From Limisphaerales bacterium (lineage in GTDB: Bacteria > Verrucomicrobiota > Verrucomicrobiia > Limisphaerales > SIBE01), in assembly GCA_044225505.1 (NCBI GenBank), contig JBGAIN010000001.1:83642-147641 (forward strand): a stretch of DNA of 64,000 nucleotides. Reading direction: 5' to 3'. The notes below the pieces were generated by a model that searched no databases, was not told where the DNA came from, and was given only the letters and a program-made list of their open reading frames with translations. A program made the translations under genes and the position numbers. This document shows positions 1,239 through 35,513 of the stretch, piece after piece. Every line of letters begins with the position of its first letter. Position 1 is the stretch's first letter.

Positions 1239-1276
1239 GGCTGACGTGACAAGCGGAGAAAATGTCAAGAGTCCGC
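1239..1276 (-). promoter_or_regulatory. 38-bp conserved promoter-like motif, copy 1 (upstream of kinase)
   Basis: Minus strand GCGGACTCTTGACATTTTCTCCGCTTGTCACGTCAGCC; same spacing as copies at 5093, 7725, 9935 and 19613. Confidence 0.75.
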
Positions 1277-1289
1277 CAATATCTTGATT

Positions 1290-1859
1290 CTACTCAGGAG
1301 GCTGGCGTTGCTTTTTGACTTCACGCCGAAGCCAGGCCCGGGCGTAAGTCCATAAGCTTTCGGCGGTTCTGAGGGGAAGACCCATCGTTGCTGCGGTCTC
1401 AATCATGCTCATTCCGACGAAATAACGGTATTTGACGAGACTCGCCGCGACGGGGTCCTCCTTAGTCAGCATTTCCAGCGCTTCGTCGATCGCAAGCAGT
1501 TGTTCCGGCGGCATCTGCTGCACCAGTTGATCTTCGTTAAGCTCCACATGAATTGCGCCACTGCCGCGCTTGGCCGCGTGTTTCCGTCGTGCCGAGTCGA
1601 TGAGAATCTGACGCATACCCTCGGCCGCCGCCGAAAAGAAGTGGGCCCGGTTCTCGAAGTGAGGATCGCCCTTTCCGACGAGCTTTATCCAGGCTTCATG
1701 GACCAGAGCCGTCGGCTGAAGTGTATGCCCCGGAGCCTCACTGGCCATCTTCTGGGCGGCAATCCGCTTGAGCTCAGTGTAGACGAGTGAAAGCAACTGC
1801 TCGGCGCATTGCTCATTACCAGCCCTGATCTCCCGCAGGATTCTTGTGACTTCCGACAT
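1290..1859 (-). CDS. ECF sigma factor, TIGR02999/ECF43-like (kinase-associated)
   Basis: MSEVTRILREIRAG...LVYTELKRIA...GHTLQPTALVHEAWIKL...ENRAHFFSAAAEGMRQILIDSARRKHAAKRG...WTYARAWLRRE; lies directly upstream of the kinase. Confidence 0.93.
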   Translation of the reverse strand: MSEVTRILREIRAGNEQCAEQLLSLVYTELKRIAAQKMASEAPGHTLQPTALVHEAWIKLVGKGDPHFENRAHFFSAAAEGMRQILIDSARRKHAAKRGSGAIHVELNEDQLVQQMPPEQLLAIDEALEMLTKEDPVAASLVKYRYFVGMSMIETAATMGLPLRTAESLWTYARAWLRREVKKQRQPPE

Positions 1860-2382
1860 AGCTTGCTTCTAAGACAAACCGGAGAGATGCGGGTTTCACA
1901 AAAGCCCAATCCGGGTTACCCGCGTCGCATTTGGGCCATTGGCTAAGTTAACCCAACCTAGCGCCTGTTCTCACCGATGGAAAGCGAGCGTCGCGCATCT
2001 GTCAGGGGAAAAGGCATCGAAAAACCCGTAACGCGCAGAGACTTAGGTTTGCTACGGTTCAAGCCTCGTGCAGGGCTAGCTGTTTACCGCTGCCTGGGAC
2101 CTCGACGGGCGATCCATCGTGCGGTTACAACGGACGTAGGTAGATGTAAGCTGCGGCTGTTAAGTAAGTTATAAAGAACTGTCAGTAGTGTTGTTTCCTG
2201 ACGATGCGGGCCGGATGCCCTGAGCTATTCCCTTGCTGCAACTGCGACAGCGGTTCCGGGAGTCCCGCACGAACCGGGCAGGCTAGGCGCAAGCCTAGGT
2301 CACACCCGCGTGCGTTTAGAAGCTGAGAGGAATCACGTGGCCATCCGATTTCAACGCGATGGCAAGGCCAGGAATCGATTAG

Positions 2383-4014
2383 TCATCGTTTCTCCCGGAC
2401 TTTTATAAAACGCGCTCGTTCGGCCAGCAGCGGCACTCGGGTTCGCAGGACCTGGTCGATTGCGGCGATTGGCTCCGTCAGCGTGCTCCAATCTGCCTCG
2501 ACCGCGTGGATGTCACTGCTATAAATCAGCTCAACGCGATTCGCATGATTTGCATCCAGCGGAGCGCCGGTGGTCGATTGCACAGAAAGCTCGACAAAGG
2601 CGTCGCCGACCTTCAAGGCGGCAATGGCAAGAGGTGGAAGCGCGGCGGTGGGCAGAGAAACGTCCAGGGCGACGATTTCGGCGTCGACCGCAGAGTTTCG
2701 GGCGTAGATTCGTCCGTTTGAAAGCACAGGACGATTCCAGCAGTAAAGGCTCAAGACCTTGAGCCTGGCCGTTTCTGTGTAGGCCAGGGGGTTTGTTTCA
2801 ACAAGCACAAGCTCCCCTGTCTCGGTTAGAACGATCAATGTGTTGGCGGCCTTGATAACGCTGCCATAAGAAATCGCAGCCGATCCGACAACCGTTTGAT
2901 CCCAGCGATTAATTCCCGTGGTGGCATCTAAACAGGCGAGGCGGCCCTGGCCAGTGTTCGGAGCCGGCACGGCGTAGAAAAACCCTTGATGAGACACGGG
3001 CGTCGCCCAATGGGCTTGATAACGAGTGCCGGTCTGACGGCCAGATTGAGTCGCGGAGAATGTGTCACCGGTCTTGGCGACGTGCGCTATCCAAGTACCC
3101 GAACCATAGGCTGCAGAAGCATAAACATACTCGCCAGCTACCGAAGGGGAAGCCGCCGTGGAAACGGCCGAAGGTGAGAATGAAAGCCGCCACAGCAAGG
3201 CGCCTGTCTCAGGTAAAACGGAGACTAATCCGGCGCGCGTCAGGAAGATGATTTGAGATACGCCATGAAGGGTAGAGTGAATGGGAGTGGCGTGGGTCAG
3301 TCCGTCAGGCAGATTGCTCCAGACGGTCGTTCCGTCCGTTTTATTCAGCGCCATGAGGCGGCGGGAGCCGGCGTTTGAGTTTACAAAAATGAGGTTACCC
3401 ACCAAGAGGGGGGAAGCAGCGTTTTCCCATCCGATATTTTGGCTGCCGAGTTCCGCCTGAAAATCGCGGCTCCAGACAATACTGCCATCCGTCACTTTCA
3501 GGCAGAAGAGCTTCAGTTGTGAAGTGGACACATAGACGAAATCTCCTTCGACGGTTGGCGTCGACCTGGGCCCATTGGCTCGCTGGTCGGCTTGCGCGAT
3601 GTCGTCATAGTCAGCGATATCGACGTCTCGCGCCCAGAGTTCTGTCCCGGACGTCGCGTCGAGCGCAATACAAAATTCGCGGCTTCCGCTGTCAGTCTCT
3701 CGCCTCTCCTGGGTGAAGAGGCGGCCATTGCTGACGGAGATCGAACTCCATCCCGGCCCAATTGACTTGCGCCATAGGACTTGCGGAGGATCCGTCGCCC
3801 AATTAGTTCGAATACCCTCCGGCGAGGTGTTGTCGCCGAGCGGCCCGCTGTACTGTGGCCACTCAGCCGCCAGCACCGTCCAACCGACGACGCCAATAGA
3901 AATGCACGGAACAAGCAGGCCTGTCCATACGGAATGCAAACAAGTTGCCACATTGTTGGCTGCTGCTGGCCTCGACTCGTAGTCAGCAAAACGGAACCGG
4001 GAGAGGATCTTCAT
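2383..4014 (-). CDS. Secreted PQQ-binding-like beta-propeller protein with C-terminal sorting-like domain
   Basis: AAEWPQYSGP, GPRSTP, ALDATSGTELW-type repeats and CWNRPVLSNGRIYARN; extra ~90-aa tail ending RARFIKVREKR. Start placed at MKILSR (4014) rather than 4125. Confidence 0.85.
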   Translation of the reverse strand: MKILSRFRFADYESRPAAANNVATCLHSVWTGLLVPCISIGVVGWTVLAAEWPQYSGPLGDNTSPEGIRTNWATDPPQVLWRKSIGPGWSSISVSNGRLFTQERRETDSGSREFCIALDATSGTELWARDVDIADYDDIAQADQRANGPRSTPTVEGDFVYVSTSQLKLFCLKVTDGSIVWSRDFQAELGSQNIGWENAASPLLVGNLIFVNSNAGSRRLMALNKTDGTTVWSNLPDGLTHATPIHSTLHGVSQIIFLTRAGLVSVLPETGALLWRLSFSPSAVSTAASPSVAGEYVYASAAYGSGTWIAHVAKTGDTFSATQSGRQTGTRYQAHWATPVSHQGFFYAVPAPNTGQGRLACLDATTGINRWDQTVVGSAAISYGSVIKAANTLIVLTETGELVLVETNPLAYTETARLKVLSLYCWNRPVLSNGRIYARNSAVDAEIVALDVSLPTAALPPLAIAALKVGDAFVELSVQSTTGAPLDANHANRVELIYSSDIHAVEADWSTLTEPIAAIDQVLRTRVPLLAERARFIKVREKR

Positions 4015-4046
4015 AGGTCGCAAGAATTGCTGCTTCGATCGTTTGT

Positions 4047-4814
4047 TTACCAAAGTCCAAAAGCTCCGTCCGATTCCCACAATCGGGAGGCCCGATAGGC
4101 TCGCATCTGCTTGATGTCGCGCCACGAGGCGGAACCGTCGAGCAAAGCCACATTGCCTCCCTTCGCGCCGATATCCGGCGGCCTTTCTTGAGTCGCATGA
4201 TCGTTCGCATCGAAGTAGCCCTCTTCCTTTACCACCGGACCGCGGGCGGTGTGCGGCGCAAGGATGCGCTGATAGCTAGGAGCCCAAACGTTCAAGTCCG
4301 CGACCAACGGCAATGTCGGATCATCGTCCGTTTTCTGGGGTGAAATCCAACGATTGGTCATACCGGCGACTGGCTCCCAAGGTGTTCCTCCGTGGCCTGC
4401 CAGGTAGTGGTAGCCAATGGCGATCCCATACGTGTCGTGCGTTCGCCAGCCTTCGCCTTTCGTCATCCACTGCGCCAGGCTCGGACAGTCGACCGCCTTC
4501 AAGTCGCCGGCATAACGCAGCAGATTTGTTTTCGCCAGCAAGGAAAAGATGGGCGTGTGCGTATCATCGGGATTACGGTTATCCGTGCCACCAGCTAAAA
4601 GTTTTTCCTGGTTATCACCCGCATATATGTGCACGGACAGGAGGAGTTGTCGCTGATTGTTTAAGCATGTGATGCGTTTGGCTCGCTCCTTGGCGTTGCT
4701 TAGGGACGGCAGCAGCAACGATGCGAGGATGGCGATGATGGCAATCACCACGAGAAGTTCGATCAGTGTAAATCCACGATAAATCGTGAGCATGCTCTGG
4801 TGATTGGATTTCAT
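4047..4814 (-). CDS. Prepilin-type N-terminal cleavage/methylation protein (PVC DUF1559-like, H...GGNVALLDG)
   Basis: [42 protein letters not shown]-terminal [22 protein letters not shown]-like sequence before ATG at 4814. Confidence 0.9.
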
Positions 4815-4825
4815 AAGTGCTGTCT

Positions 4826-4935
4826 TCCCTTCCTTAACTGGGACGAGCGGTTCGTAGCGCTGGTTACGACTCTTCCGCGTGTGCGCGCAGGCGCACATGA
4901 AAACGGGATGCCGCTTTGAAACAGCGGTTGGTCCA
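4826..4935 (-). repeat. ~110-bp duplicated leader, copy A (ECF-like GTAACC-N16-CGTC plus TGTGCGC-N4-GCGCACA palindrome)
   Basis: Aligns with 7476-7585; shared blocks include TTAAC.GGGACG, GGTTACGACT, GTGTGCGC and GCACATG. Confidence 0.75.
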
Positions 4936-5092
4936 GTTGCTGGATATCCATTCCCACAAGAAAGCGTGCGGTTGATCATCAGCGGGGAGGGCTTCCGGGT
5001 TGAGCCTTGGATCGCTAGCGGCCTTGCCATCCAAACGCGGACCGCCTCCGGCAAAGACTGCTCCCGGGTTACTAGATCGAGTTCCGACATGT

Positions 5093-5130
5093 GGCTGACG
5101 TCACAAGCGGACAATCGGGGGGAAGTCCGC
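5093..5130 (-). promoter_or_regulatory. 38-bp promoter-like motif, copy 2 (upstream of prepilin gene)
   Basis: Minus strand GCGGACTTCCCCCCGATTGTCCGCTTGTGACGTCAGCC. Confidence 0.75.
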
Positions 5131-5407
5131 TAAACTCTTCTCTAAATTTAATCCGGGTCCCGAGCGTCGCTTCGTCAGTCTCTCTCCTCGAACCGGAAGG
5201 CAAAGAACTCCCTGGTTTCTGGCACGCTGAGCTACAACACGTTCCGTTTTCGTCGCCAATCGACCCCGGCCCCGCTTGACCGTGTGTCGATGCACCGCGC
5301 CTGAGTTCGCGCTATCGCAGACCCGATTAAGCGGCGGCATGCTCGTGGGACGATCTGGTGGCTCCCGACGGAGGTACCCCTCTCCCGAAGCACTTCAAGA
5401 ACTCAGG

Positions 5408-7393
5408 TCATGGGGCCGAGACTCGCAGTCGGAGAAATCGTGCCTTCACATTCTGAATCGGCGTGTTATCACGCAGGACGAGCTGGGTGGGTGTCTCGGT
5501 GATAGTAACAGTCCCCTCCGGAAGAGTTGTCCACATAAGCAGATCCGTGGAAATCTCCAGCGTATAATTAGTGTCGGGTGCCGGAGTGGAACGGGTGACG
5601 GTCACTAGCAGATAATTCTGGCCAGCCGCTTCGATGATGCTCCCAGAGAGAAGGGGTCCTGAATCGGGTGTCTCATAGGCAATTCGCCAGATCGTGCCAT
5701 TGGCATCCTCAGTCACCAGCAAAGCACCATCGTGTGCGACGGTGACGCCGACCGGCCGTCCCCAAACATTGCGGTCGCTTGTGACAAAGCCTGTTAGAAA
5801 ATCATCATATCGACCGGTCGGCACCCCATCGTTCAACAGGATTCGAACAACTTTGTATCCGGTGCGGGTTGCGCGGTTCCATGACCCATGCAATGCCACA
5901 AACGCGTCGCCGTGAAACTGCCGAGGGAAAGCGGCCGGACCATTGTTGGTCGGATAGAATGTCATCTGCAAAGACGCGGAATGTGCCTGTTCCAGCACGT
6001 CGGGAACGATTGCCTTGCCAGCCAAATCCGGCCGTTCGCCCGCATGACGGGGATCTTCCAAGCTCCCCATATAATACCACGGCCAACCGTAGAAGCCGCC
6101 TTCTTTGACGCGAGTGACGTAGTCCGGCACTAGGTTGTCGCCTAAGCCATCCCGTTCGTTTGTAGAGACCCACAGGTCACCGGTCCTCGGATGAATGGCG
6201 AGTCCCACGGGGTTACGAATTCCAGTTGCATAGGGGCGCAGCGGTTGACTCCCTTCCGGGTCTGTTACCAGAATATTCGCGCGATGCGTATCGGGACCCC
6301 ACGCTGCTCCCAAGCCATGCTCCGCTTCCCATGCCGTGACTTCGGTTGGATTCTTTCGCGCCATCTGTTCTCCAATGTTTGAACTCGACCCGACGGCAAT
6401 AAACATCTGCGTGCCGTCTTTGGAGAAGACGACATCCCGCGTCGTGTGCCCGCCGGTGGTGTCGCTCAATCTCGGAATAACAATTTGGGGGGCGTCGGAT
6501 GCCGCCAGGTCTCCGTTGCGATACGGAATTCGCACCACCGAGTTATTGAGAGCAATGTAGAGCCAGCGCGGATCGTCCCCGGCTGGATAGAACGCTATCC
6601 CGAAAGGCTGGGCCAATCCTTGAGCGAAAATCTTATTGGTGGATGGCAGGTCAGCTCCATCTTCGGTCCGTATGATTCGGATGCGGTTTCGCGCCGTTTC
6701 CGACACGAAAATATCCCCATTAGGCGCTACCCGCAACAGTCGGGGATTGCTCAGGTTCGACGCAAACTGCTTCACGGTGAACCCCGCGGGCACAGACAAA
6801 GTGGCAGTGGTCGGCCGCGCTACGACGGTGGGGAAATTGCCTGCCGATGGAGTGGCATACGGTGCGGGCAAGTCGGCGACGGCGATGAAATGTTGAGCCC
6901 CGGGCGCTTCTTGCCGCCAGTCATCCGGGTCGAGACCAGTGACCGTCGGTAGTTTGTCCAAGTCAACGCCCTCTGGGACTAGAAGGGTTGCCAGATAAGC
7001 CGTCACGTCCGCGCGCGTGCTCGCGTCGGGAACCGAAACCAGCATGGTCGTGCCTGGAACCGCCGTCGTCGGACTGATCAAATATTGATCGAGCGTTGCC
7101 ATGTTCCACAACAGCCCTGAATCCTTAAGGGCTTGCGTGAAGCCGAAGTGCGGGCTTGTTCCCGCCTTCCGGCCCATCACACCAACCAGGGTCGGACCTT
7201 GCTTTATCACCACGGTATTGTCCGGGCCGAGCTTGGTGCTGTGGCAAAGAGCGCAACTCGTCTGAAAAAACTGCTCCCCGCTCTGCGCGTCGCCGGCTTG
7301 GTTGCCTTCCGCCGTCGCCATCCTCGCACCAACTGCAAACGAAAGGCTGGCGATCGAGATCCACTTTGATGGCAGTGTGATTCTCTTCATCAT
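5408..7393 (-). CDS. Secreted cytochrome c + PQQ-dependent glucose/L-sorbosone dehydrogenase fusion with C-terminal sorting-like domain
   Basis: Signal peptide; CALCH and PGTTM (class I cytochrome c); GIRNPVGL, NERDGLGDNLVPDY, ALHGSWNR and WGRPVGV (sorbosone DH family); tail YTLEISTDLLMW...ARFLRLRVSAP. Confidence 0.9.
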   Translation of the reverse strand: MMKRITLPSKWISIASLSFAVGARMATAEGNQAGDAQSGEQFFQTSCALCHSTKLGPDNTVVIKQGPTLVGVMGRKAGTSPHFGFTQALKDSGLLWNMATLDQYLISPTTAVPGTTMLVSVPDASTRADVTAYLATLLVPEGVDLDKLPTVTGLDPDDWRQEAPGAQHFIAVADLPAPYATPSAGNFPTVVARPTTATLSVPAGFTVKQFASNLSNPRLLRVAPNGDIFVSETARNRIRIIRTEDGADLPSTNKIFAQGLAQPFGIAFYPAGDDPRWLYIALNNSVVRIPYRNGDLAASDAPQIVIPRLSDTTGGHTTRDVVFSKDGTQMFIAVGSSSNIGEQMARKNPTEVTAWEAEHGLGAAWGPDTHRANILVTDPEGSQPLRPYATGIRNPVGLAIHPRTGDLWVSTNERDGLGDNLVPDYVTRVKEGGFYGWPWYYMGSLEDPRHAGERPDLAGKAIVPDVLEQAHSASLQMTFYPTNNGPAAFPRQFHGDAFVALHGSWNRATRTGYKVVRILLNDGVPTGRYDDFLTGFVTSDRNVWGRPVGVTVAHDGALLVTEDANGTIWRIAYETPDSGPLLSGSIIEAAGQNYLLVTVTRSTPAPDTNYTLEISTDLLMWTTLPEGTVTITETPTQLVLRDNTPIQNVKARFLRLRVSAP

Positions 7394-7475
7394 ATTGGTG
7401 ATTTGTAAAACCGTGGAGGTTTGAAGCAAAACTTTCGAGGTATTGGTTGCGCCGGTGAGCCCATCGCGATTAGAT

Positions 7476-7585
7476 CCCCTCCGTTAACAGGGACGGTCGG
7501 CTGGTGGCAACGGTTACGACTGTTGCGAGTGTGCGCCCAAATGCACATGGAAGAAGGGGCCCGCGTTAATCGAATGTTGGACCCA
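7476..7585 (-). repeat. ~110-bp duplicated leader, copy B
   Basis: Homologous to 4826-4935; GTAACC-N16-CGTC at 7517-7492 and imperfect palindrome TGTGCGC-N4-ATGCACA at 7530-7547. Confidence 0.75.
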
Positions 7586-7724
7586 TGGCTTGATCGCCTC
7601 CTGCTCGAGAACGTCGGCAGCGACGACGCCATCCATAAAAAAGATAGCCCTTTTGAGAGCAACTGCTCCAGGACATAGAGAAACTCTCCTCGATCTCGAA
7701 TAAATGGACTGAGTTGGGACATCT

Positions 7725-7762
7725 GGCTGATGTCACAAGCGGACAATCACACCAAAGCCCGC
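7725..7762 (-). promoter_or_regulatory. 38-bp promoter-like motif, copy 3 (upstream of dehydrogenase gene)
   Basis: Minus strand GCGGGCTTTGGTGTGATTGTCCGCTTGTGACATCAGCC. Confidence 0.75.
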
Positions 7763-7926
7763 CGATCTTTCGCAAGATCTGACCAGGTTGCCGACCGGTG
7801 ACCGTCCCTCTGCAGGACCGATCCTCCCCGGGCGTAGCATTTTCATCTACACGCACTCCACTACTGTCACGCTGGATCGTGGCCTTTCAGCGCCTAAACG
7901 ACCAGAGGTTTACTATCCTGACGACC

Positions 7927-9882
7927 TCACGGACCTAAGCGGAGTCTATAATACTTGGACGCGGCAGGCATATTCACCGCGGCCCCAACATCAAGGTAGT
8001 TCGTTGTTGTGAGATAATTACCGAGCGGGACAACCCTCTGGCCCAAATCGGTAAAACTGCGCCCGTCGATACTCGAGGCGACCTGCAAATGGTTCGTCGT
8101 TCCGCCTTGGGTGGTCCAAGTGACAAGAATGTCGCCGCCTTGCCGCGTGATGGTAGAGAAACGAAATGGTGTTGAATTTGGATCCGTCGGGTCGGTGCTG
8201 GCCTGATACTCGGCAGTGTTGTTCATCCCGTCGCCGTCCGGGTCGCCATTGGGACCGCCCCGGGGAAGCAGCTCGATGCCTTCGTTTCTGCCTAGATTAC
8301 GGGAGTAAAGCCTCTCTACGGCGTTGTTCCAGTGCTCGTGGACACCGAGACTGGCCAGGAGAGACCCGGTGCTGCCAGGGTCGTAAGAGCTGCCTGAGGG
8401 AGGGTTGCCTGCCTGGGCACTTTCGTGGAGGTAGTTGTCCACACCTTGGCCGCTACAGTTGTTGGCCATGAGCGGTTCATTCCGAAGGATGTCTACCAAA
8501 ACGGAATCAAGCGCGACGGGGTCCTGCGACGCTAGCACGCTGGCAGTCCAATTAGTGCCAAAGGACCGGAAGCGGAGCACCGTGGTGATGGCATTGTCGG
8601 AACCATAGAGACCGTCCACCAGGAACAGGAGCGTCTTCCTGCCGAGTTGCGGGTGGCCCAGGAGGTCGACAATAGGGTTGTAGGTGCCCATCGGATTATC
8701 GCGCATACCGAAGTTGTGCAGAGGTGAGGGCGTCCAGCCACCATTCCATGGGAAATAATTGGCATTCGCCCGCCAACAGACCGAGCCAAACCAGTTTTTG
8801 CCGCACCCGGTCATGCCGAACATGCTGTGCGCCGAGAGCAGAGCCAAATCGATCAGGTATTTGGCTTCGGTCACGCAGGTGGGCGGATAAGCCGTCGCCT
8901 GGTTAGCAGGACTCACGCTTGGATCGGCGAAGTGGATGGGATAGGCCGGGTCATAGACCGCACCAATGCGACCGTTGCGCGTGGTGTTGGCAACGAACCT
9001 CACGTTCTGAAAATTCGGGTCTGCATCGCCGTGGATCCGGTTGTAGAGCGGGTCGGCGATGGCCCGCGAGGCGTCATAAACCGTGACATTTGATCCGGAG
9101 ACATGCACCGTGTCGAAGAGTTGGGCCAGCAGGGCATGAAGCATCTGCGGACTTGGCATGCGACCATTGCCACTGTACGCCGGCCCGTATCCCTCTTCGT
9201 TCAGGTTAATTTTGATGGCGATCTTTTCGCCACGCTGGTAGCCAACGTCACCAGCACCGTGTGTGCGATTAAAATGGCGAAGGAGGGCGTCCCAGGCGGC
9301 CTTATCATTCTGCTCCGCCGTCAAAGTCCGCAGCGCATGCGAGAGCATTTTATCCACCGCATGTTGATCCAGGTTCTGCTCGTCCCACCAGTGACCAGTC
9401 CTGCCATCCCACTTCGTTGAGTTTGGATCGTGCACCCAAACGACTCGCCCCGGATGGATGCCCTTACCGAGGCCGATCGGGTTATTGGCTGGATCGCTCG
9501 GAACGAAAGCCGCACGAGCACCGGTGATGGTGGGCACCCAACAAATAGCTGCCAGCCCCACCGCTACCGCCGCGAAAAGTCCAGCAGCTAAGTAGCGGCC
9601 TCGTCCCGCCAGACGCTTGGCCTTGCAGTAAGCCAGACTCGACACGCCCACGGCGGTCAACCACACAATGAAACCACTCGCGATGGGAAAGGCGGCCCGC
9701 TGGCAGGGATAGCTAGCCCGCGCGGGCTTGGGGATCACACGGATCAGGAACCACAGCAGCGACACCAGTCCCATGAAAGGCATTGTCCAAGGCGCCCAGC
9801 GGTATGCCCTTTCGCTCCCGAGCAATCGACCGGTTTTCGGGTAGGTCTTCGTGGCACTCGTATCTTTTATTAAAAACTTCAT
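7927..9882 (-). CDS. DUF362-family membrane/secreted protein with DxDxDG Ca-binding motif and C-terminal sorting-like domain
   Basis: SLLWFLIRVIPKPARASYPCQRAA, GIHPGRVVWVHD, KIAIKINLN, ASQDPVALDSV, SLGVHEHWNN; GDPDGDGMNNTAEYQASTDP; tail ending SKYYRLRLGP. Confidence 0.8.
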   Translation of the reverse strand: MKFLIKDTSATKTYPKTGRLLGSERAYRWAPWTMPFMGLVSLLWFLIRVIPKPARASYPCQRAAFPIASGFIVWLTAVGVSSLAYCKAKRLAGRGRYLAAGLFAAVAVGLAAICWVPTITGARAAFVPSDPANNPIGLGKGIHPGRVVWVHDPNSTKWDGRTGHWWDEQNLDQHAVDKMLSHALRTLTAEQNDKAAWDALLRHFNRTHGAGDVGYQRGEKIAIKINLNEEGYGPAYSGNGRMPSPQMLHALLAQLFDTVHVSGSNVTVYDASRAIADPLYNRIHGDADPNFQNVRFVANTTRNGRIGAVYDPAYPIHFADPSVSPANQATAYPPTCVTEAKYLIDLALLSAHSMFGMTGCGKNWFGSVCWRANANYFPWNGGWTPSPLHNFGMRDNPMGTYNPIVDLLGHPQLGRKTLLFLVDGLYGSDNAITTVLRFRSFGTNWTASVLASQDPVALDSVLVDILRNEPLMANNCSGQGVDNYLHESAQAGNPPSGSSYDPGSTGSLLASLGVHEHWNNAVERLYSRNLGRNEGIELLPRGGPNGDPDGDGMNNTAEYQASTDPTDPNSTPFRFSTITRQGGDILVTWTTQGGTTNHLQVASSIDGRSFTDLGQRVVPLGNYLTTTNYLDVGAAVNMPAASKYYRLRLGP

Positions 9883-9934
9883 ACCCTCCCTCTGTTTTCT
9901 CTGGGATTTGATTTTATTAGTAGTTCGAGTATTT

Positions 9935-9972
9935 AACTGCCGTTACATACGCAGAACTTAATTAAAACCCGC
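9935..9972 (-). promoter_or_regulatory. 38-bp promoter-like motif, degenerate copy 5 (upstream of DUF362 gene)
   Basis: Minus strand GCGGGTTTTAATTAAGTTCTGCGTATGTAACGGCAGTT; 25/38 identical to copy 4 without gaps (hand count). Confidence 0.6.
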
Positions 9973-10383
9973 TACGTGGATTTCAATGGCTCGCAGCGTC
10001 ACAATCACTGATGGGCGCTACTCCTCCTCTCGAAGACTTCTCGCCTTTGGCAGCAAACGACTTAGCATTGGGCAGGATCGACGCGAGCCGTCGAATCGCC
10101 TTAGTCCTGACCGACACCACACAACCGGGAGCTCGGTTACTTCCCTAGCTGCTTAGCGCAGCTTCGATGATCAACTTTGAGCAGGTTGTTTTGAGCGGAC
10201 TCTGGGCCACAGCGTTGTCTGGCCTCACAAAATCTAAAATGCTTCAGATCTGGAGTCTGAATCGTGGGCCCATTTGTCGAAGACCGTATTCCTGTGGGGC
10301 TCAAGCCTCTGCCCGCTCGCTGGTTGCGGCTGCCCAGTCCCGGTTCCGGAGCCACGCTCCATGCGCCCAATCCCGTGACACCG

Positions 10384-11424
10384 TCACCTGACTTTTGAAA
10401 TCCGCAGCGCCCAAAACCGAATCGCGTCGGTAATCCATCCTTCGGCGCTTGTTCCAGTACCTGGGCCAAAGCCGTGACCCAGATTGGGGTACTTGTGAAA
10501 CTCGACGTCCGCGCCGCCTCTTCGCAAGGCCTCAACCCGTTGCTGCATAGCGAATGCCGGAGCGATTGCGTCTTGATCGCCAACGACCACAAAGGTGGCC
10601 GGTTCATTGGAAGAATAATCTGAATGGCCGGTGTAAGCCATTACAACGGTTGATGGCTTCGGAAGGTCGGCTCCTCCAAAGGATCGGACTCCGTGCGACC
10701 CGATAGCCGCGGCCATTCTTGCGCCAGCCGAACTACCCCACAGTGAATAGCTATTTGTGCCCACTCCAAGCATTTGAGCGTTGCGAAAGACAAAGCTGAT
10801 GGCTGCCGCCATATCCTGGACAGCACAAGAACTGCCACATCCCGTCCGGTATTTAAGCACGAAACCGTTGAACCCCTTATTGCTAATCTCGACGGCATAG
10901 GGAAAACCCTCGTGGACAGAGCCAACGTAGGAGAATCCTCCACCAGGCGCCACAATGGCGAAAGGCGCGCCCGGCTTTCCGTGAACGAGAAACAATCCAG
11001 TATTCGTTCGCCCGGGCTCAGCCTGCTTTTCAGCGTCCGTATAGAAATCGTAGAATATGGTTTTACCAGTGCTCACCTCGTCAATGAGATGGTTCAGTGC
11101 GCTCAGCACACGATCGGGATTTACATGGCTGTGATACGGGAGGAGGGAGCCCAAATCGCCGAGCGGCGTGTTCTGGTCAACGGCCCGATTATCCCACGGC
11201 AAAATCAAATGACCAAAGTTGCCAAATGCCGGATGGTTTACCACGTCACGGATGTGGTCGCCCAAGGTCAGGTGATCAACTTTGGTTGCAGCCATTTGTT
11301 TCTCCAAAATCGCGGCTGTGGTCCGCTGGGATTCATCACGGCCGTTCGCGTTCCTCTCTAAACGTGGAAACGCAACGAGCAAAACAAGCGTCAAGCTGGC
11401 TAATCTCAGTCTGCCGATAGTCAT
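10384..11424 (-). CDS. Secreted alpha/beta hydrolase (esterase-like)
   Basis: Signal peptide, PGGGF oxyanion loop, WGSSAG nucleophile motif, GDQD, GHGFG. Confidence 0.85.
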   Translation of the reverse strand: MTIGRLRLASLTLVLLVAFPRLERNANGRDESQRTTAAILEKQMAATKVDHLTLGDHIRDVVNHPAFGNFGHLILPWDNRAVDQNTPLGDLGSLLPYHSHVNPDRVLSALNHLIDEVSTGKTIFYDFYTDAEKQAEPGRTNTGLFLVHGKPGAPFAIVAPGGGFSYVGSVHEGFPYAVEISNKGFNGFVLKYRTGCGSSCAVQDMAAAISFVFRNAQMLGVGTNSYSLWGSSAGARMAAAIGSHGVRSFGGADLPKPSTVVMAYTGHSDYSSNEPATFVVVGDQDAIAPAFAMQQRVEALRRGGADVEFHKYPNLGHGFGPGTGTSAEGWITDAIRFWALRISKVR

Positions 11425-11475
11425 TTGGAATCCGCGGGTGCTATGGTGTCGTGAGGGCCTTTGTTGGTCACTCTA

Positions 11476-12432
11476 TCAGTTCTTTTCCGCAAAGACATGC
11501 ATCAGCCATCTGTCAAAATCGGGCACCCAATTGCCTCTGGCGCCGTAGCCGTGCGGCCATCCTTGAAGAATATTGGATTCAACCGACACGCCCGCCTTCT
11601 GTAATGCATTGGCACACGCTTGAAATTCATTAACAAAAGGGTCCTTTGTGCCGTAGCAGAAATAGGTGGGAGGCAGGCTGGACCGTCTGAACAATTCTAC
11701 GTCCTGTGATGCAACACTTAATCTGCCATAAAAGGAATAGATATGCCCAATCGCGCTGGCATCAGCGGACACCTTATCCAAGTCGTCCGGCACATATCTC
11801 GAATCAAGTGTTGTCCCATTTACTTTCCCGTTAAAATGCAGCAACAATTCGCCGCATAGAATACCTCCCGCTGAAAAGCCAGCTACGGCGATATTCTTCT
11901 CCCGTATCCCGTAATCTGGAGCGTGGCTCCGCACATACCTCACTGCTCGGGCTAGATCTAAAGCGCCTTCCTCCTGGGTATATGGCCGCACCCGGTAGTT
12001 AACTACAAAGCACTGATATCCAAGCCGGGTCAACGCTCTCGCGACAGGTTCGCCTTCATTTCGATTCCCGCGGAATGCAAATGCTCCACCGGAGCAAAGG
12101 ATAACAGCTCCCTTTACGGGAACCCCGTCCTTGGCGGGAAACACCTGCATGTTGGGAATAAAATCCGGCGGATCTGCGTGACGACTGTTGCTACTGGCCT
12201 GAGCCTTGGTGATTGCAGGGATATTATCTTTCGCCCAGAGATAAATCACAGCCCGTTCCGGCGTTGCGGGCGAGGTCGGCTGCGTTGAGTTCGTCGTTAT
12301 GGTTTCTTGTGCATTTGCTGAGATCCAGAGGGAGGCGGCGATCTGGCAGAGCGCGAAGAAAGGCTTCAGTGGCCTCCTGCTCACAGAATCTGTTGCAGCA
12401 CCTCCAAAGGGCAAGAGCTCCAGGTTTTTCAT
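11476..12432 (-). CDS. Secreted alpha/beta hydrolase (esterase-like)
   Basis: SGGAF, AGFSAGG, GTKDPF, PHGYG. Confidence 0.85.
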   Translation of the reverse strand: MKNLELLPFGGAATDSVSRRPLKPFFALCQIAASLWISANAQETITTNSTQPTSPATPERAVIYLWAKDNIPAITKAQASSNSRHADPPDFIPNMQVFPAKDGVPVKGAVILCSGGAFAFRGNRNEGEPVARALTRLGYQCFVVNYRVRPYTQEEGALDLARAVRYVRSHAPDYGIREKNIAVAGFSAGGILCGELLLHFNGKVNGTTLDSRYVPDDLDKVSADASAIGHIYSFYGRLSVASQDVELFRRSSLPPTYFCYGTKDPFVNEFQACANALQKAGVSVESNILQGWPHGYGARGNWVPDFDRWLMHVFAEKN

Positions 12433-12455
12433 ACGTGCTGCCCAAATCGTGGTGA

Positions 12456-13553
12456 CTAATCCAAACCTTTCTTTTTAAGGAATTCCGACATGAGATCGGC
12501 AATCTGCAGATTATTCAGATCCGAGAACGGGAAATGGGTATTCCCCCGAATCCCCGTCTCGGGTAAGTGCACAACGGTGACATCACCACCGCGGCGGTTT
12601 ACAGCATCCCGCCAAAGCCTCGCCATTGCCAGACGGACTCGCCAACCGTCCTGCCCCGGGTTTGCGATCGCTTCCGCCGGGATGTTGTCGCCGTAGAAAA
12701 TGATGATCGGAATCTTAGTCAACGCCACGAACTCCGACAGCGGCACGCCGAGAGCCTGGAGCGTGCCCCCGGCACTTGGCATCGCGGGAGGCACTTCTCC
12801 TTCGGGAAAGATAAAGCCGCTCCCGGGTTCGTAGGAGACGATGGCGCGGACGTTCGAGTTCTTGGTCGCGACGCGCCAACCCATACCTCCGGCATGCGAG
12901 TGGGTGACGAGAATCCCCGGCCCGATCTTCCCAAACAGCGCGGTGACCGCGGCCGAGTTCAGGGCAGGATCGAGAGGGCCCGTGTCGGGCGTAATCTGCC
13001 GAAAGTATTGGTTCAGCGCCTCTGGGTCGCGTGAAAACTGCACGCCGGGGAAGAAGTCCGGCCAGATGCCCAGTCGAAACGTGCCGAACCAGTCCTGCTC
13101 GTCAGATGTTGGGGTGATAGCCGCGGGCAGTGTGCTGCGACCCGCGCGGCCGCGGCGCGGCTGATCGATGACGTAGACCGGGAAGCGGCGACGTAAGAAA
13201 ATGTTTTGGAAGCCCTCGCGCCCATCCGGGGTGGTTTCCCAGGTCTTCGAGAACTGCCCGATGCCATGCCAGAGAACGAGCGGCAGTCTTCGAGCGCTCA
13301 CCGGGACCTGGAAAAACACGAATGCGTGATCGCCGTGCAACGTCTGGCCGGCAGGGCTGCGGTGGATGGCGTCGTAGGCGCCGCCATTGGTTATCACGGT
13401 TCCGCCCACGGCGAAGCTGCCTTGCTTCTGGATGGTCAACGGCTCGGACGTTTCACTCGCGTGTTGTCCGGTTTCAGAAGCAAAAGCTGCAGACGTCAGC
13501 AGAGCTAGAGCAACCGTTGCTATCTTCCTCACCATGCATCGGTGTTTCGTCAT
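12456..13553 (-). CDS. Secreted alpha/beta-fold hydrolase
   Basis: Signal peptide, WETTPDGREGFQNIFLRR, VTHSHAG, GNTHFPFSDLNN. Confidence 0.85.
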   Translation of the reverse strand: MTKHRCMVRKIATVALALLTSAAFASETGQHASETSEPLTIQKQGSFAVGGTVITNGGAYDAIHRSPAGQTLHGDHAFVFFQVPVSARRLPLVLWHGIGQFSKTWETTPDGREGFQNIFLRRRFPVYVIDQPRRGRAGRSTLPAAITPTSDEQDWFGTFRLGIWPDFFPGVQFSRDPEALNQYFRQITPDTGPLDPALNSAAVTALFGKIGPGILVTHSHAGGMGWRVATKNSNVRAIVSYEPGSGFIFPEGEVPPAMPSAGGTLQALGVPLSEFVALTKIPIIIFYGDNIPAEAIANPGQDGWRVRLAMARLWRDAVNRRGGDVTVVHLPETGIRGNTHFPFSDLNNLQIADLMSEFLKKKGLD

Positions 13554-13562
13554 GAGTCGTCC

Positions 13563-14660
13563 CTAAATCAGGTACTTGTCGAAGAACTCCTTCAGCTTCG
13601 CGACCGCGGGCGCCACGAACTGGGGTTTGTCGTACATATCAATGTGCGTGGCGCCATCGACAACAAAGAGCTCCTTCGGCTCCTGTGCCTTGGAATACAC
13701 CTCGTCGCTCCAGAACTTCGTGTCGGCCTTGCCACCCACCACCATCAGAATCGGGCGCGGCGAGATGGTTTCGACCTGATCGAAGGGGAAGAAGGCCATC
13801 TGCAAGGGGAGACTGGAAAACATGTAGCGATTGGGCGAATTGGGATGCTTGCCGCGTGGGGTCATGTAGTATTCGTAGCCCTCGCGATAGAGAACGGGCG
13901 TGCTGTCTGTGAATTCAGCAGCGGAGTCGGGCGAGACCTGCACAAGCCGTATGGGTTCGCCACGGGCTTCCTTGCTGCGCTGCTCACCCGCGTCCTTCAG
14001 GCGCTTCATCCGTTCCTCGTAGGACAATCGGCCCATCGCACGGCGGCGCGCGTCCCCAAGATTGAACATGCTGACCGTTGCGACCGCCTTCACGCGCAGC
14101 TCGGTCGTGGCGTTGCACATCGCATAACTGCCGCCCGCGCAGATGCCGAGCGAACCGATGCGGTCGGGATCAACTTGCGGCTGCTGCACCAGGTAGTCGA
14201 TGGCGCAGCTGATGTCATCCAAGCGTTGTGCGGGAACTTCTATCAATCGCGGCTTACCGCCGCTCTCGCCTTGGTAGGAAGCGTCGTAGGCCACACTAAT
14301 GTAGCCTTCCTCGGCAAGGTGCTGTGCATAGAGTCCAGCCGTCTGCTCCTTGACGCCACCGAAGGGATGCGTCACGACGATAGCCGGATACCTTTTGCGC
14401 TCGTCGAATCCGGGTGGCTTAAAGAGGTTGGCGGCGATACTCGTCCCCATATTCCTGGCCTGATAGCTGATGCGCTCTATCAGGACACCCTTTTTGTTGG
14501 GATAGCCGATCACTGCCGGCTCATTCACCGGACCCACGGTCCTGGTTTGCGCCGACGCCTCACGAAAAGCGAGCACAACCGCGGCGCTGGGAATCGCGGC
14601 TATGGCCGCACCGATGAATCTGCGCCGCCCGCGATCAATAATCTCATTATGTGTATTCAT
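13563..14660 (-). CDS. Tat-exported alpha/beta hydrolase with Cys nucleophile (YcjY/dienelactone-hydrolase-like)
   Basis: GRRRFIG twin-arginine signal, HPFGGVKEQTAGLYA, LGICAGG, GATHIDMYD. Confidence 0.88.
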   Translation of the reverse strand: MNTHNEIIDRGRRRFIGAAIAAIPSAAVVLAFREASAQTRTVGPVNEPAVIGYPNKKGVLIERISYQARNMGTSIAANLFKPPGFDERKRYPAIVVTHPFGGVKEQTAGLYAQHLAEEGYISVAYDASYQGESGGKPRLIEVPAQRLDDISCAIDYLVQQPQVDPDRIGSLGICAGGSYAMCNATTELRVKAVATVSMFNLGDARRRAMGRLSYEERMKRLKDAGEQRSKEARGEPIRLVQVSPDSAAEFTDSTPVLYREGYEYYMTPRGKHPNSPNRYMFSSLPLQMAFFPFDQVETISPRPILMVVGGKADTKFWSDEVYSKAQEPKELFVVDGATHIDMYDKPQFVAPAVAKLKEFFDKYLI

Positions 14661-14693
14661 AATCTGCTCCTAAGGAACTGACGCAAATGCTCG

Positions 14694-15569
14694 TCATTTC
14701 TTCTCGAATACCTCCTTAGCCACGCCGATGGCGGTTACCGCGTTAGGCCAGCCAGCGTAAAATGCCAGGTGAGTGATGGTCTCGATTATCTCATCTTGCT
14801 TTAGGCCATTTTCACGCGCCTTAACGAGGTGAGATCGAAGCTGGTCTGGACGGTTCATGGCGATGAGCGCGGCCACCGTCACCAAGCTTCGGTCGCGCTT
14901 CGACAGCTCGGGCCGCTCCCAGACATCCCCGTACAACACGTTATCCGTCAACTCCGCTAATTTGGGTGCGAACCCGCCGATCGCCCGTTGAGAGGGACGA
15001 GACTGCGCGCCGGGATCGGGCGTCAACCGCTCTCCGCTGCGGAGCGCCGCGGAATACTGCGCATCTCCGACCTTCTCCATCCATTCGACCGACTTGCCGT
15101 CGAGCGCTTCGCTGATGGCGATGTGCGCCATTGAACTATCCGGCGCAGCCCCATGCCAGTGCTTCTGGCCGGGCGGGATCCAAACCACGTCTCCTTGCCG
15201 GATCTCGTCAATGGGATCCCCCCAGCGCTGCACCCGGCCCACCCCAGCCGTCACGATCAGGATCTGACCGAGCGGATGCATGTGCCAGGCAGTACGTGCG
15301 CCAAGTTCAAACGTAACGAGGGACCCGGAGGCGCGAGCCGGAGCGTTGGCCTGGAAGAGAAGATCGACTCGGACGGAACCGGTGAAGTTCTCGGCCGATC
15401 CCGGCTTGGAGGGTTGCGATCTGCTCCGCGTGATCCTTATCGTTTCCTGGTTCTTGGATGTTGCAGCTTGGTTTGGGTGGCTTGGGTTCTCTTGCGCGTG
15501 TGTTGACGTCGAAGGCAAGCCTGTTACCAGCCACAGCGCGATGCAGATTTTACGAGATGTTACCTTCAT
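14694..15569 (-). CDS. Cupin + carboxymuconolactone-decarboxylase-like (CMD) fusion with signal peptide
   Basis: [13 protein letters not shown] and GQKHWHGA (cupin); [24 protein letters not shown] and [10 protein letters not shown] (CMD). Confidence 0.9.
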
Positions 15570-15606
15570 AGGTTTGAAGTAATGGCGCCCTCGACAGCGG
15601 TTGAAA

Positions 15607-16719
<1,113 letters not shown>

Positions 16720-16760
16720 CTACTTTCAAATTGTTCGCTTTGAAGAATATGGCCAACTTC

Positions 16761-17657
16761 TCAATTCAAATGGTTCCGAAGAAAAGTGATGACTCGATTC
16801 CTAACCTCATCCGCATCGAACATTATACCGAAATGAGGCGCGTCTCGGACAATGACCAGTTCATTTTCAACACCCACCACACTCAACCAAGCGCTCAATA
16901 ACTGGGAATGTTTTGGGGAAACCAATTCATCCTTTTCGCCGTGGATGATCAAAAATGGCGGATCATCCTTATCCACATATGTAACCGGACTGGCAACTTT
17001 GGCTAGATCCGGGCGCTTGAGAGGGGCAGCCCCTATTAGCAGACTTTCCGGTGACTTTTCATCATTACTTCCGGGAAATATTATCAATTCGGCTGGACCG
17101 TAAAAATCCACCACGGCTCTGAAGCGGAATGATTTGCTTGTCCCGGGCATAAAAAACGTTTCGATATTGTTGTTTTTCGATAAAGCCACCAATGAAGCCA
17201 GATGCCCACCTGACGAAAAACCCATAACTGCAAAGCGTTTTGTGTCGAGGCGATATTTGCCTGCGTTATCGTACAGAAATGAAATGGCACGGTTGCAGTC
17301 CTGTATCTGAGCAGGAAAAACGGCTTGGGTGCTGAACCGGTAGTCAATCGACGCCAGCGCAAATCCACTGCTGACAATTTCTGCCACGGTTTTCTTCATA
17401 TAACCAATATCAGCATGCTTATCATTGCTTAACCAACCGCCACCATGAATTAAAATGACCAACGGCATTTCACCCTTCGAATTGGCCGGCAAATAAATAT
17501 CCAAGGAGTGTTTCGGCAGGCTATCGTCGTTGTAAGACACGTTGCTGTGCAAAATAGTGCCCTGGGGAAAGGCATCGATAACTGGGTTGGTTTGGGAGAA
17601 GCCGCGCGTTACAGCTATGGAGAAGAAAAATAAGAATTGGAGGCTATGTGTTTTCAT
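16761..17657 (-). CDS. Secreted alpha/beta hydrolase (BD-FAE/HSL-like esterase)
   Basis: [25 protein letters not shown]; visibly AT-richer than its neighbours. Confidence 0.88.
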
Positions 17658-17665
17658 GCGGAGCC

Positions 17666-19429
17666 TTATTTTGCGCGTCCGTTCACGTTGGCGGCCTTTT
17701 CCATCACGTCCAGCCGCGCTTTCCGCGGATCGGGTTCGGCGGTCGGCGAACCGTCGGGCCGGAACTCAAGGATCTCATCTTTATTCGCGTCATAACGCGG
17801 CCATTTCGGCAGGCCCGGACCATTCGGATCGCCTGTCTTGGCGAAATTTGCCCAATAGGTGTTCATCATCTCGGCAACTTCTCGGTCTTTGAGCGCAACC
17901 GTGGTTCCAGTTCGGTCTCTAAGGTTGCCGAATACGTAGGGGATTTCAGATCCGTGCGCTGCACCGTACCGCATCCGCCCTTGCATTGAAGGGGAGATGT
18001 ACGCGAAGAGATACATATAGGCGGGTGCGCCCTTGGCGGCAAAGGTCCTTGCAGTTAACCGGGCCGGCTCCGCCCATACCTTGTCTGTGTTGACCATCGT
18101 GAGCATCTTAGCGAAATCCGTGGTGCCATCAGGATCGTAGGCCGCACTCATTTCACCCCTCACGTTCGCGAACTGCGACAGTAGTTCTTCCTTCGACCTG
18201 GCATTGACAAAGCCAGCCGGAACTTCCGCACTATTCGATCCTATGATCAGCGGAACATTGGCCTGCCTGCCCGCCTTGTATGCGCTCTCAGCAGTTTCAA
18301 CAACCAGTTTGCCGTCCAGAATCGGACCTGAGTAAATCGGCGGGCCTCCGGGACCATCACTTTCCTGGCCTCCGTCTACAATGTCGGCCACACTCAGGGC
18401 GCGCAGCTTCTGCAGCGCGGTCGCATCAGTGCCCTCAATCCCATGTTTGCGGGCGAAGTTGATTCCGATCGTTTCCGCTGAAACAGGGTAGAACGGATCG
18501 GCATTTTCTTCGCGGATGGGTCTTCCGGTCAGAACACCATCTCGCCCACCGCCGGACTGGCTGATCGCCTTTTGAAAGAGGCCTCGCGCATCCGGGATAG
18601 TCAGAAGTGAATGGACGGATACGCCACCGGCAGAAAAGCCGAAAATAGTCACATTATTCGGATCGCCTCCGAATGCGGAGATGTTCTGTTTGATCCACTT
18701 GAGCGCTGCGATCTGGTCCATGTAGGCGTAACTACCCTTGGGCTCTTCTGGATGCTCCTTACTCAGTGCGGGAAAAGCGAAGAAACCCAGGCGCCCGAGT
18801 CGGTAGTTGATGGTGATCAGGATAACCCCTTGTTTTGCAAACTGATTTCCGGCATTTTCAGGAGAGGCGCCGGAACCTCCTACGAAAGCCCCGCCGTGGA
18901 TCCACACCATGACCGGCAGCTTTGCTCCCTGCTCGGCTACAGCAGGTTTCCACACATTGAGAAATAGACAATCTTCCGACGAGTTCTCGCGAATTGAAGC
19001 CGTGCCACGGCTAAATCCCCTTTGGGCACAATCCGCACCGAACTTGTTCGCGTCACGTTCTCCCCGCCACGCGGGCACAGGTTGTGGCGGACGCCAACGA
19101 TTGGCGCCAGTAGGTGCAGCCGCATAGGGAATGCCCTTGAAGATGGCGACATCGCCTTCGGTTAAACCACGGACGATTCCCGACTCGGTCCGAACCGTCG
19201 GCGCTGCCCCTGGGGTTTCAGCGGCGATCGTTTTCGCACGATTGGGCGTGGCAGCCTGCTCTGGTTTGCTGTTGACGGCTTCTTGTCCGTATACCGAACC
19301 CAAGAGAGCGGCGACAACCAGCCACAGCGCGCCCGAGGGGCGCCGAAGCTTCCTGCTCATTGAATCGACTCCGGTGGCACGGCTAATCGAGGATTTCAAG
19401 TAGTTCATTCGCGGTTCCGTGTTTGGCAT
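17666..19429 (-). CDS. Type-B carboxylesterase
   Basis: [51 protein letters not shown] before ATG at 19429 (start uncertain). Confidence 0.92.
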
Positions 19430-19612
19430 CAAGTCTCCTGTGATATCTCCTTGGACGCTCAGGGGAGAGCAACGAAGGTGTGCTCCAGAATGCGGGTAGC
19501 TCATCTGCAATCGAAGAGCCAACCGCCCGACGCTCGAAGAGAGCTACGGGCAGCTCCAGCGCTTCGCGAAAGATCTTCCGCGCTCGGCCTGTTGGTCTGG
19601 ATTCTAACATTG

Positions 19613-19650
19613 GGCTGGCGTGACAAGCGGAGAATCCGATCGAAACCCGC
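19613..19650 (-). promoter_or_regulatory. 38-bp promoter-like motif, copy 4 (head of hydrolase cluster)
   Basis: Minus strand GCGGGTTTCGATCGGATTCTCCGCTTGTCACGCCAGCC. Confidence 0.75.
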
Positions 19651-19834
19651 TAACGAATTCATGTCAGGTAATCAACTGCCTTTCCCCAAGGGCCTTCCAT
19701 CAGCTCTGCCCAGGCGTAAGTCTTGGAGCGTCCAGCGCTTCGCCAACGCCTGCTTAGCTGCTATCTCGTCACGGCGTATCGCTGCTTATTGCAGACGTTC
19801 CAAAGCAAACTCGTGAACGCCATCGCCGCTAGTT

Positions 19835-35402: not shown

Positions 35403-35465
35403 CGCGTTGGGCGCGAGATTGGGGTTGTTCGCTAGACCGGCGATGGCTAGGACACGCTAGTTTTG

Positions 35466-35513
35466 AAATGTCTCACACTTCGTCCACAATTGTGGACAAG
35501 ATGTGAGACATTT
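35466..35513. repeat. 48-bp near-perfect palindrome, copy 1
   Basis: AAATGTCTCACACTTCGTCCACAATTGTGGACAAGATGTGAGACATTT. Confidence 0.9.

Follow-up and report, generated by a model that had tools for sequence, protein, structure and literature searches.

We analysed a 64,000-nucleotide (nt) window of the genome of a Limisphaerales bacterium (C222:83642-147641; source genome 9.04 Mb in 342 contigs), in which a gene for a sigma factor of the extracytoplasmic function (ECF) type is followed by a gene for a Hanks-type kinase. The original prediction had described five copies of a 38-bp motif around this gene pair and had read them as promoters of the local sigma factor. The genes and motif copies of this part of the window, all on the minus strand, are:

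1 to 1218, minus strand: 5' part of the gene for a 1113-amino-acid (aa) Hanks-type kinase (kinase domain, WD40 repeats), extending beyond the window
1239 to 1278, minus strand: predicted promoter copy 1, at the junction of the sigma and kinase genes (TGGCGG at 1278-1273 as -35-like box, 17-nt spacer, CGCTTG at 1255-1250 as -10-like box)
1290 to 1859, minus strand: ECF sigma factor, 189 aa (TIGR02999, Pfam Sigma70_ECF; QPTA with Thr50; region-4.2 helix with R164, E167 and S168)
2383 to 4125, minus strand: PQQ_2 beta-propeller protein, second gene behind copy 2
4047 to 4820, minus strand: prepilin-type N-methylation gene, predicted target of copy 2 (start uncertain)
5093 to 5132, minus strand: predicted promoter copy 2, TAGCGG-N17-CGCTTG, before the prepilin-type and PQQ-propeller genes; predicted start 5096
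5408 to 7393, minus strand: cytochrome c plus glucose/sorbosone dehydrogenase-family protein, predicted target of copy 3
7725 to 7764, minus strand: predicted promoter copy 3, CGGCGG-N17-CGCTTG, before the cytochrome c-sorbosone-dehydrogenase-like gene; predicted start 7728
7927 to 9882, minus strand: DUF362 protein, predicted target of copy 4
9935 to 9974, minus strand: degenerate predicted promoter copy 4, TAGCGG-N17-CGTATG, before the DUF362 gene; predicted start 9938
10384 to 19522, minus strand: co-oriented cluster behind copy 5 (a common transcript is putative only)
19613 to 19652, minus strand: predicted promoter copy 5, TAGCGG-N17-CGCTTG, before the esterase/hydrolase cluster; predicted start 19616

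The closest relatives of the sigma factor fall in Verrucomicrobiota records. It matches TIGR02999 (Sig-70_X6) with 200.1 bits against a curated cut-off of 126.15, and Sigma70_ECF is its sole Pfam match (185 bits), without separate region 2 or region 4 domains. In region 2.2 a Ser/Thr motif, QPTA, replaces DAED, and its Thr50 is invariant in 33/33 aligned sigma factors, which agrees with the earlier assignment to the TIGR02999/ECF43-like sigma factors that have a Thr in this region. The kinase gene (position +1) starts 71 nt past the sigma stop codon; the catalytic motifs are intact and a single hydrophobic helix at about 398-416 is the strongest hydropathy window. Downstream of the kinase, beyond the window, lie a PQQ_2 propeller/EF-hand gene and then a CotH gene; these two genes and the WD40 sensor of the kinase were out of sight of the original prediction. 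The cluster behind copy 5 contains genes for a carboxylesterase, a BD-FAE esterase, an aldo/keto reductase, a cupin-CMD protein and four alpha/beta hydrolases.

Four of the five copies (1239, 5093, 7725 and 19613) fit the consensus first proposed with 0 mismatches, and this consensus had 0 matches in 100 shuffles, whereas the 9935 copy has 7 mismatches and is not recovered at up to 3. We built a position weight matrix (PWM) from the four strong copies, which score 38.7-41.5 bits on it, and scanned both strands of the genome, a scan that had been suggested with the original prediction. Only 4 sites exceeded 25 bits, all in the window, compared with 0 in a shuffled genome; with just these four strong sites, all at this locus, a dispersed repeat is ruled out. 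The 9935 copy reaches 19.7 bits on the four-copy PWM, near chance (4 shuffled sites above 18). An independent model, trained solely on 17 sigma-adjacent sites of R164/E167 sigma factors from other genomes, ranked the copies 3rd (1239), 21st (5093), 12th (7725), 28th (9935) and 8th (19613) among 18,073,676 positions. Because this independently trained model recovers it, the 9935 copy is probably real but degenerate. On a 40-nt clade model trained on 7 junctions of other genomes, the copies score 37.7 (1239), 22.7 (5093), 28.6 (7725), 32.4 (9935) and 36.8 bits (19613), and only 6 sites in the source genome exceed 20 bits.

We redrew the core of the motif as a hexamer (TGGCGG/TAGCGG)-N17-CGC(T/A)TG that begins 2 nt 5' of the 38-mer; the -35/-10 boundaries given earlier were misplaced. 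The predicted start at copy 1 is the CA at 1243/1242. All five copies are on the minus strand and co-oriented with the genes that follow, as had been claimed, and the additional claim that each is intergenic holds for the 5093 copy only with a short prepilin start, because the prepilin reading frame also has an ATG at 5090. An assembly artefact was rejected, as one public contig of 6,293 nt, possibly from the source sample, covers 3850-10142 including three of the copies without differences.

The motif after related sigma genes

At kinases beside other TIGR02999 sigma factors, where a further check had been proposed, the same layout recurs right after the sigma stop codons in Verrucomicrobiota and Planctomycetota. 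In the four closest orthologues found (72-82% identity), the motif lies 7-30 nt past the sigma stop in 4/4. For the family at large we collected 131 distinct sigma factors, dropped 12 as too short and retained 119 post-sigma regions. A first expectation-maximization (EM) run recovered the kinase N-terminus instead of a promoter, and its result was used to mask the kinase coding sequence. Unseeded EM on the 119 regions returned TGGCG..TT..TT.CGCAT, that is, the hexamer, 17 nt and CGC(A/T)T, with a log-likelihood of 400 versus at most 92 in shuffles. The EM motif is present in 61/119 training loci and in 39/56 kinase-linked loci. Above 13 bits the training set has 48/117 sites downstream of the sigma gene (a circular count), 0 antisense and 2/117 upstream, and site-specific models found 0/49 upstream of the sigma gene. 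Among held-out sigma factors (n=62) there were 18 sites downstream in the sense direction, 0 antisense and 1 upstream.

The motif has the make-up of a bipartite ECF promoter: two conserved boxes, a variable spacer of fixed length (16-18 nt; two sites deviate by one base) and a single orientation. A pyrimidine-purine step lies 7-8 nt past the -10 box in 25/25 clade sites, a regularity partly built into the search, and at the predicted start of 5/5 sigma-anchored sites. The classical autoregulatory position, upstream of the sigma gene, is not where this predicted promoter stands. One further site was considered there:

2002 to 2031, minus strand: sixth candidate, a weak site (20 bits) ahead of the sigma gene, with CCC instead of the near-invariant CGC

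This site was not found upstream of the 4 orthologues checked, and autoregulation of the sigma gene through it was rejected because it is not conserved. An ATG stands 6 nt past the predicted start in 13/25 sites, and at three loci (L132, L150 and L151) the gene behind the site seems to begin at this ATG. Coupled translation via a leader open reading frame (ORF) was unsupported, the frame being fused or coupled to the next gene in 15/24 sites versus 12 and 9 for the other frames.

Additional copies occur near other sigma factors as well. Around sigma genes of other clades, 548 kb of sequence held 9 same-strand and 2 opposite-strand second copies where about 0.9 would be expected on each strand; three of the same-strand copies are junctions of neighbouring sigma genes. 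Second copies near planctomycete sigma genes include those at L088 (+3517) and L082 (+3337 from the junction site), and L088 resembles the window in that the duplication extends to the 3' flank. A metagenome pattern scan gave 3 matches, one after a sigma-like 3' end, one before a PQQ-propeller gene and one unrelated and intergenic.

The -35 hexamer and the sigma recognition helix

We then compared hexamers with the region-4.2 helices of the cognate sigma factors. Of 52 confident sites, 3 were dropped at >85% identity, which left 49 non-redundant pairs and 189 x 36 = 6,804 residue-base pairs. The top four of these 6,804 are E167 with position 5 (z 11.3), E167 with position 6 (10.2), R164 with position 4 (9.3) and S168 with position 2 (6.6). 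Helices of the form R..E go with T(G/T)GCGG, R..D with TGGCG(T/C), R..K with TGGCCC, A..Y/F with TGAGAC and S..E with TGAAGG, and in a tree from which region 4.2 was left out, these pairings turn up again on different branches. One orthologue with an E167G replacement carries TGGCAG. Sigma factors that lack Arg at 168, as the local one does, mostly have a non-G base at hexamer position 2.

To predict bases for held-out sigma factors, sites were located ignoring hexamer positions 2-6; 20/62 passed 9 bits, and kin among them are not independent. The base was predicted correctly at position 5 in 17/19 cases (shuffled mean 9.3), at position 4 in 17/20 (9.2), at position 2 in 17/19 (13.9) and at position 6 in 12/19 (9.2).

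Residues E167-S168 align with K-S of the SigL recognition helix, which we take to be equivalent to that of RpoE. In the available text of PMC7776599, RpoE Arg171 with base -31 and Ser172 with base -34 are named as experimentally tested contacts. The 3-nt offset between the contacted -35 bases is the same here, with the absolute numbering assumed, and adjacent helix residues track two -35 bases as in that specificity code; unlike RpoE, the local sigma factor has an acidic residue, E167, at the Arg171-equivalent position. A single-sequence search of the PDB retrieved no sigma factor.

The variation of the hexamer also bears on whether GCGG...CCGC is an inverted repeat, serving as operator of a dimeric regulator or as an RNA hairpin. 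The arms are complementary in the four strong copies. Across the family, however, the left arm varies (TGAGAC, TGGCCC, TGAAGG) while CGC stays; the orientation is always one way, and the 25 clade sites contain no compensatory changes, with one inner pair broken in 4. We regard an operator or hairpin as very unlikely. A structured RNA was likewise rejected, with no Rfam match in window positions 1-21000 at E up to 1 and no compensatory pairing.

Predicted target genes and probable history of the copies

An order-wide pattern search gave matches in 29/401 genomes at 37 places (reversed-pattern control, 14 matches). Of 29 non-own loci examined, 13 were linked to the module; the other 16 resembled chance matches or a different element. 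The clade model gave 24 sites across 13 regions, 24/24 co-oriented with the following gene; 12 genomes other than the source genome account for 19 (including 5 training sites), and 6/12 of these genomes hold 2-3 copies. The clade promoter there again precedes the kinase, and other gene types of the window recur behind it: a carboxylesterase in G148 (51% identity), a PQQ propeller and then DUF362 (80%) in G383, frameshifted pieces of the cytochrome-dehydrogenase (39-64%) in G232, a PQQ propeller and then the prepilin gene (82%) in G004, and PQQ/CotH genes in G276, G323, G091 and G002. In G232 (L168/L169, C9) sigma and kinase genes are frameshifted and in G004 (L172, C12) the kinase is in pieces, the promoter copies being intact in both.

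The original prediction had taken the copies of the window as independent, which they are not. The 5093 and 7725 copies have about 350 nt of alignable flank in common, and remnants of a kinase 5' end accompany two copies:

19549 to 19612, minus strand: kinase 5'-end remnant carried with copy 5 (26.5 bits on a kinase-start PWM; background 99th percentile 8.3), at the same offset as at the true junction
7661 to 7724, minus strand: probable remnant of a kinase start behind copy 3, less pronounced (3.5 bits against a background 95th percentile of 2.7) and at the same offset

Judged by eye, similar remnants lie behind copies in G383, G276 and G232. Because copies carry kinase-start remnants, we infer that the regulon grew through copying of the junction, i.e. 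the promoter with the first codons of the kinase, before new genes. The 3' part of the 38-mer is best described as a clade-specific discriminator and start region that is partly retained by descent, since remnants and shared flanks accompany the copies.

This history could also mean that the junction copy alone is functional, the remaining four being inert relics left when the kinase 5' end was locally duplicated. The remnants behind the 19613 and 7725 copies, the long flanks shared by 5093 and 7725 and the deviation of the non-junction hexamers at positions 1-2 all fit such relics. Against them, both boxes were retained while flanks and spacer diverged, and the 9935 copy keeps both boxes with no flank similarity at all. 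The same target types stand behind the promoter in G148, G383, G232 and G004 in differing gene orders, and a non-G base at position 2 is what sigma factors without Arg168 mostly have. We consider inert relics improbable. Gene order varies, and in G002 the sigma and kinase genes are separated by a gene with a motif copy on either side, as would be expected if the motif were a site of recombination or cassette insertion that reshuffles the genes near the kinase. No joints between copies occur in contigs of 4 runs (contigs drop rare forms), no recombinase is found among 18 ORFs scanned, and such a site would leave the covariation with the sigma helix unexplained; we give this explanation very little credence.

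A paralogous sigma factor with the same helix could instead be the main or an additional reader of the promoter, with a wider regulon. The source genome has 20 strong Sigma70_ECF matches, two other members of this set of about 20 paralogues have R164/E167, and the 17-site model finds 30 genome sites above 18 bits (6 in the window) where 12 column-shuffled models find 2-17; G004 and G383 hold apparently orphan promoters. The extended clade form, on the other hand, occurs at this locus only, all 4 sites that exceed 25 bits being in the window, and in other genomes it goes together with the orthologous sigma factor; we rate reading by a paralogue as unlikely. Strong sites of the T(G/T)GCGG-N17-CGC(A/T/C)T type that lie elsewhere in the genome outside long ORFs and lack the clade extension (C166:6305, C260:115667, C300:5353/5667, C30:50504, C86:42221 and C254:18593) are candidate targets of the C30 or C335 sigma factors. 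About 8 kb from the first module is a second TIGR02999 module (L191, C222:72470-76456) in reversed order, a kinase with TPR repeats and then a sigma gene; its own site, TTG(C/T)CC-N17-CGCTTC, occurs twice, before the kinase and after the sigma gene, and its helix has K at 167.

The leaders of copies 2 and 3 have a further element in common:

4827 to 4917, minus strand: block of 91 nt within the leader of copy 2 (71% identity to 7477-7567)
7477 to 7567, minus strand: matching block of 91 nt within the leader of copy 3 (71% identity to 4827-4917)

The block is conserved inside two otherwise diverged leaders and could be a second control element; it has no Rfam match and was not found in 12 family genomes. 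Three target proteins (2383-2680, 5408-5690 and 7927-8210) share, in a weak alignment, a C-terminal segment of about 90 aa ending in an R(F/Y)(L/I/Y)R/K-type sequence, possibly an export or surface-anchoring domain. Predicted sigma-70 promoters (9 vs 8.3 in shuffles) and terminators (26 vs 21.0) were uninformative on transcript boundaries. In contigs of runs X3 and X4, 7 clustered substitutions and a small insertion lie at 12417-12450, the junction of two hydrolase genes.

Several features elsewhere were noted in passing. The window has 45-nt coding-type repeats with a 300-nt duplication (24643-25850), two 47-49-nt palindromic copies that flank 11-nt tandem repeats and long inverted repeats (35465-35905), and paralogous coding stretches 9167 nt apart (46504-46738 and 55671-55905). 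Outside it, a 473-aa basic protein with about nine short repeats is encoded between the CotH gene and the second kinase (C222:76735-78156, L191). At L136, L137, L138, L139 and L149, in several genera of the order, a GC-rich element (at least 40 nt) recurs in near-identical form with an inverted repeat after it; it is unrelated to the sigma factor and possibly a small mobile or structured RNA element.

The proposed regulon and known kinase-sigma systems

Taken together, the motif at orthologous junctions, the family-wide two-block motif, the helix covariation and the recurrent target genes strengthen the promoter interpretation first put forward, although these comparative supports are only partly independent of each other. 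We think it likely that the motif is the promoter of the adjacent TIGR02999 (ECF43-like) sigma factor and drives the kinase operon and four neighbouring units. Such a local regulon would probably be phosphorylation-gated, and its feedback would act on the kinase instead of the sigma factor.

Several observations weigh against this interpretation. No strong site was found for 58/119 training and 44/62 held-out sigma factors. The covariation weakens in a set of 24 phylogenetically independent pairs, with p values of 0.008 (R164 with position 4), 0.014, 0.059 and 0.19, and scores as high or higher are reached by some other residues. At hexamer positions 1-2, A or C is rare across the family but found in the four non-junction copies, and six more distant DUF362 homologues and one dehydrogenase homologue have no site. 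G004 and G383 (completeness 92% and 94%) carry the promoter, and no orthologous sigma factor was found in them with this query (best 51% and 53%). Because two other sigma factors of the source genome (C30 and C335) share the R164/E167 helix, and 24 further sites above 18 bits lie elsewhere in the genome, including the C30 sigma factor's own junction, cross-reading is possible. Finally, the EcfK T51A mutant is described as still working in the available text on that system, so Thr50 may not be the sole switch.

Under the proposed mechanism, the membrane kinase would sense an outside signal via its WD40 domain and phosphorylate Thr50 of the sigma factor, by analogy with EcfK and EcfP, for which activation by phosphorylation of the matching Thr is described in the parts of PMC13147305 and PMC8999054 consulted. 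The phosphate would supply the charge needed for RNA polymerase binding. Region 4.2 of the phosphorylated sigma factor would read TG/AGCGG and region 2 CGC(T/A)TG, and transcription would start at the CA about 7 nt beyond the -10 box. The sigma factor would thereby transcribe its own kinase operon (kinase, PQQ propeller and CotH), a positive feedback on the activator and not on the sigma factor, and the four neighbouring units encoding exported propeller, redox and esterase proteins. Distinct -35 hexamers would keep the approximately 20 paralogous sigma factors of the genome largely apart; transcripts that run on from copy 2, or the weak site at 2002-2031, could bring in local autoregulation as well. 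Because exported propellers, CotH, esterases and redox enzymes are among the predicted targets, the output would most likely be an envelope or compound-detoxification response.

The local system resembles EcfK/PknS of Xanthomonas citri and EcfP/PknT of Vibrio parahaemolyticus in its Sigma70_ECF-type sigma factor without the acidic DAED, the conserved region-2.2 Thr and a single-pass Hanks kinase at +1. It differs in its Verrucomicrobiota-type host, in its WD40 sensor where theirs has TPR, and in a predicted output of propeller, CotH, esterase and redox proteins where theirs is type VI secretion or polymyxin resistance. Of the ECF43 hallmarks in the available supplement of PMC7826278, the Sigma70_ECF domain, the +1 kinase with one membrane helix and the Ser/Thr motif in place of DAED are present here; WD40 takes the place of extracytoplasmic TPR repeats, which the neighbouring paralogous kinase has. 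The same source, as far as available, lists ECF43 for Proteobacteria only and predicts a promoter with 'GTC in -35 and CAG in -10', whereas the relatives here are Verrucomicrobiota and the motif is another one; neither CGCAT nor TGGCG occurs in the available supplement text. The available literature also gives QTTA as the ECF43 region-2.2 consensus and notes a later expansion of the group from 69 to >900 members. We thus describe the local sigma factor, from its profile matches, as an ECF43-like member of TIGR02999 and do not place it in the narrow ECF43 group, as sensor domain, phylum and promoter differ. ECF62 of Planctomycetes, compared by description only, shares a +1 kinase with one membrane helix and WD40 repeats, whereas the local sigma factor scores in TIGR02999/Sigma70_ECF, the domain named for ECF43.

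With the autoregulatory ECF promoters described in the available parts of PMC7776599 and PMC7826278, the motif shares two boxes 17 nt apart, a pyrimidine-purine start and a small local regulon; it differs in lying downstream of the sigma gene and, by our prediction, in driving the kinase. Motif mining in PMC7776599, as described in its available text, was restricted to sequence upstream of the sigma gene, of the operon that contains it or of a gene in divergent orientation, and the accessible main text makes no mention of ECF43. Kinase-WD40/TPR architectures are described for Planctomycetota in PMC11032199, in the available text of which the word 'promoter' is absent. Our literature search returned no paper on a post-sigma ECF43 promoter, and an earlier mention in works it did not cover is possible.

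For the TIGR02999/ECF43-like family of Verrucomicrobiota and Planctomycetota, we lean, with some reserve, towards a general scheme in which a promoter after the sigma factor's own gene drives the kinase, a three-residue code in helix 4.2 provides up to about 20 distinct -35 elements per genome, and regulons arise by cassette copying. Kinase-activated ECF43-like sigma factors are numerous in these phyla, and the literature consulted offers no usable promoter for them. If true, the scheme would allow target promoters to be read for a large family of sigma factors whose promoters are missed by searches confined to upstream regions, and would supply a naturally occurring set of sigma-promoter pairs that are switched by phosphorylation and insulated from one another. 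A predictive helix code combined with a downstream promoter would make the regulons of these sigma factors computable and testable with reporters, would explain how many paralogues avoid cross-talk, and would illustrate a simple route of regulon growth.

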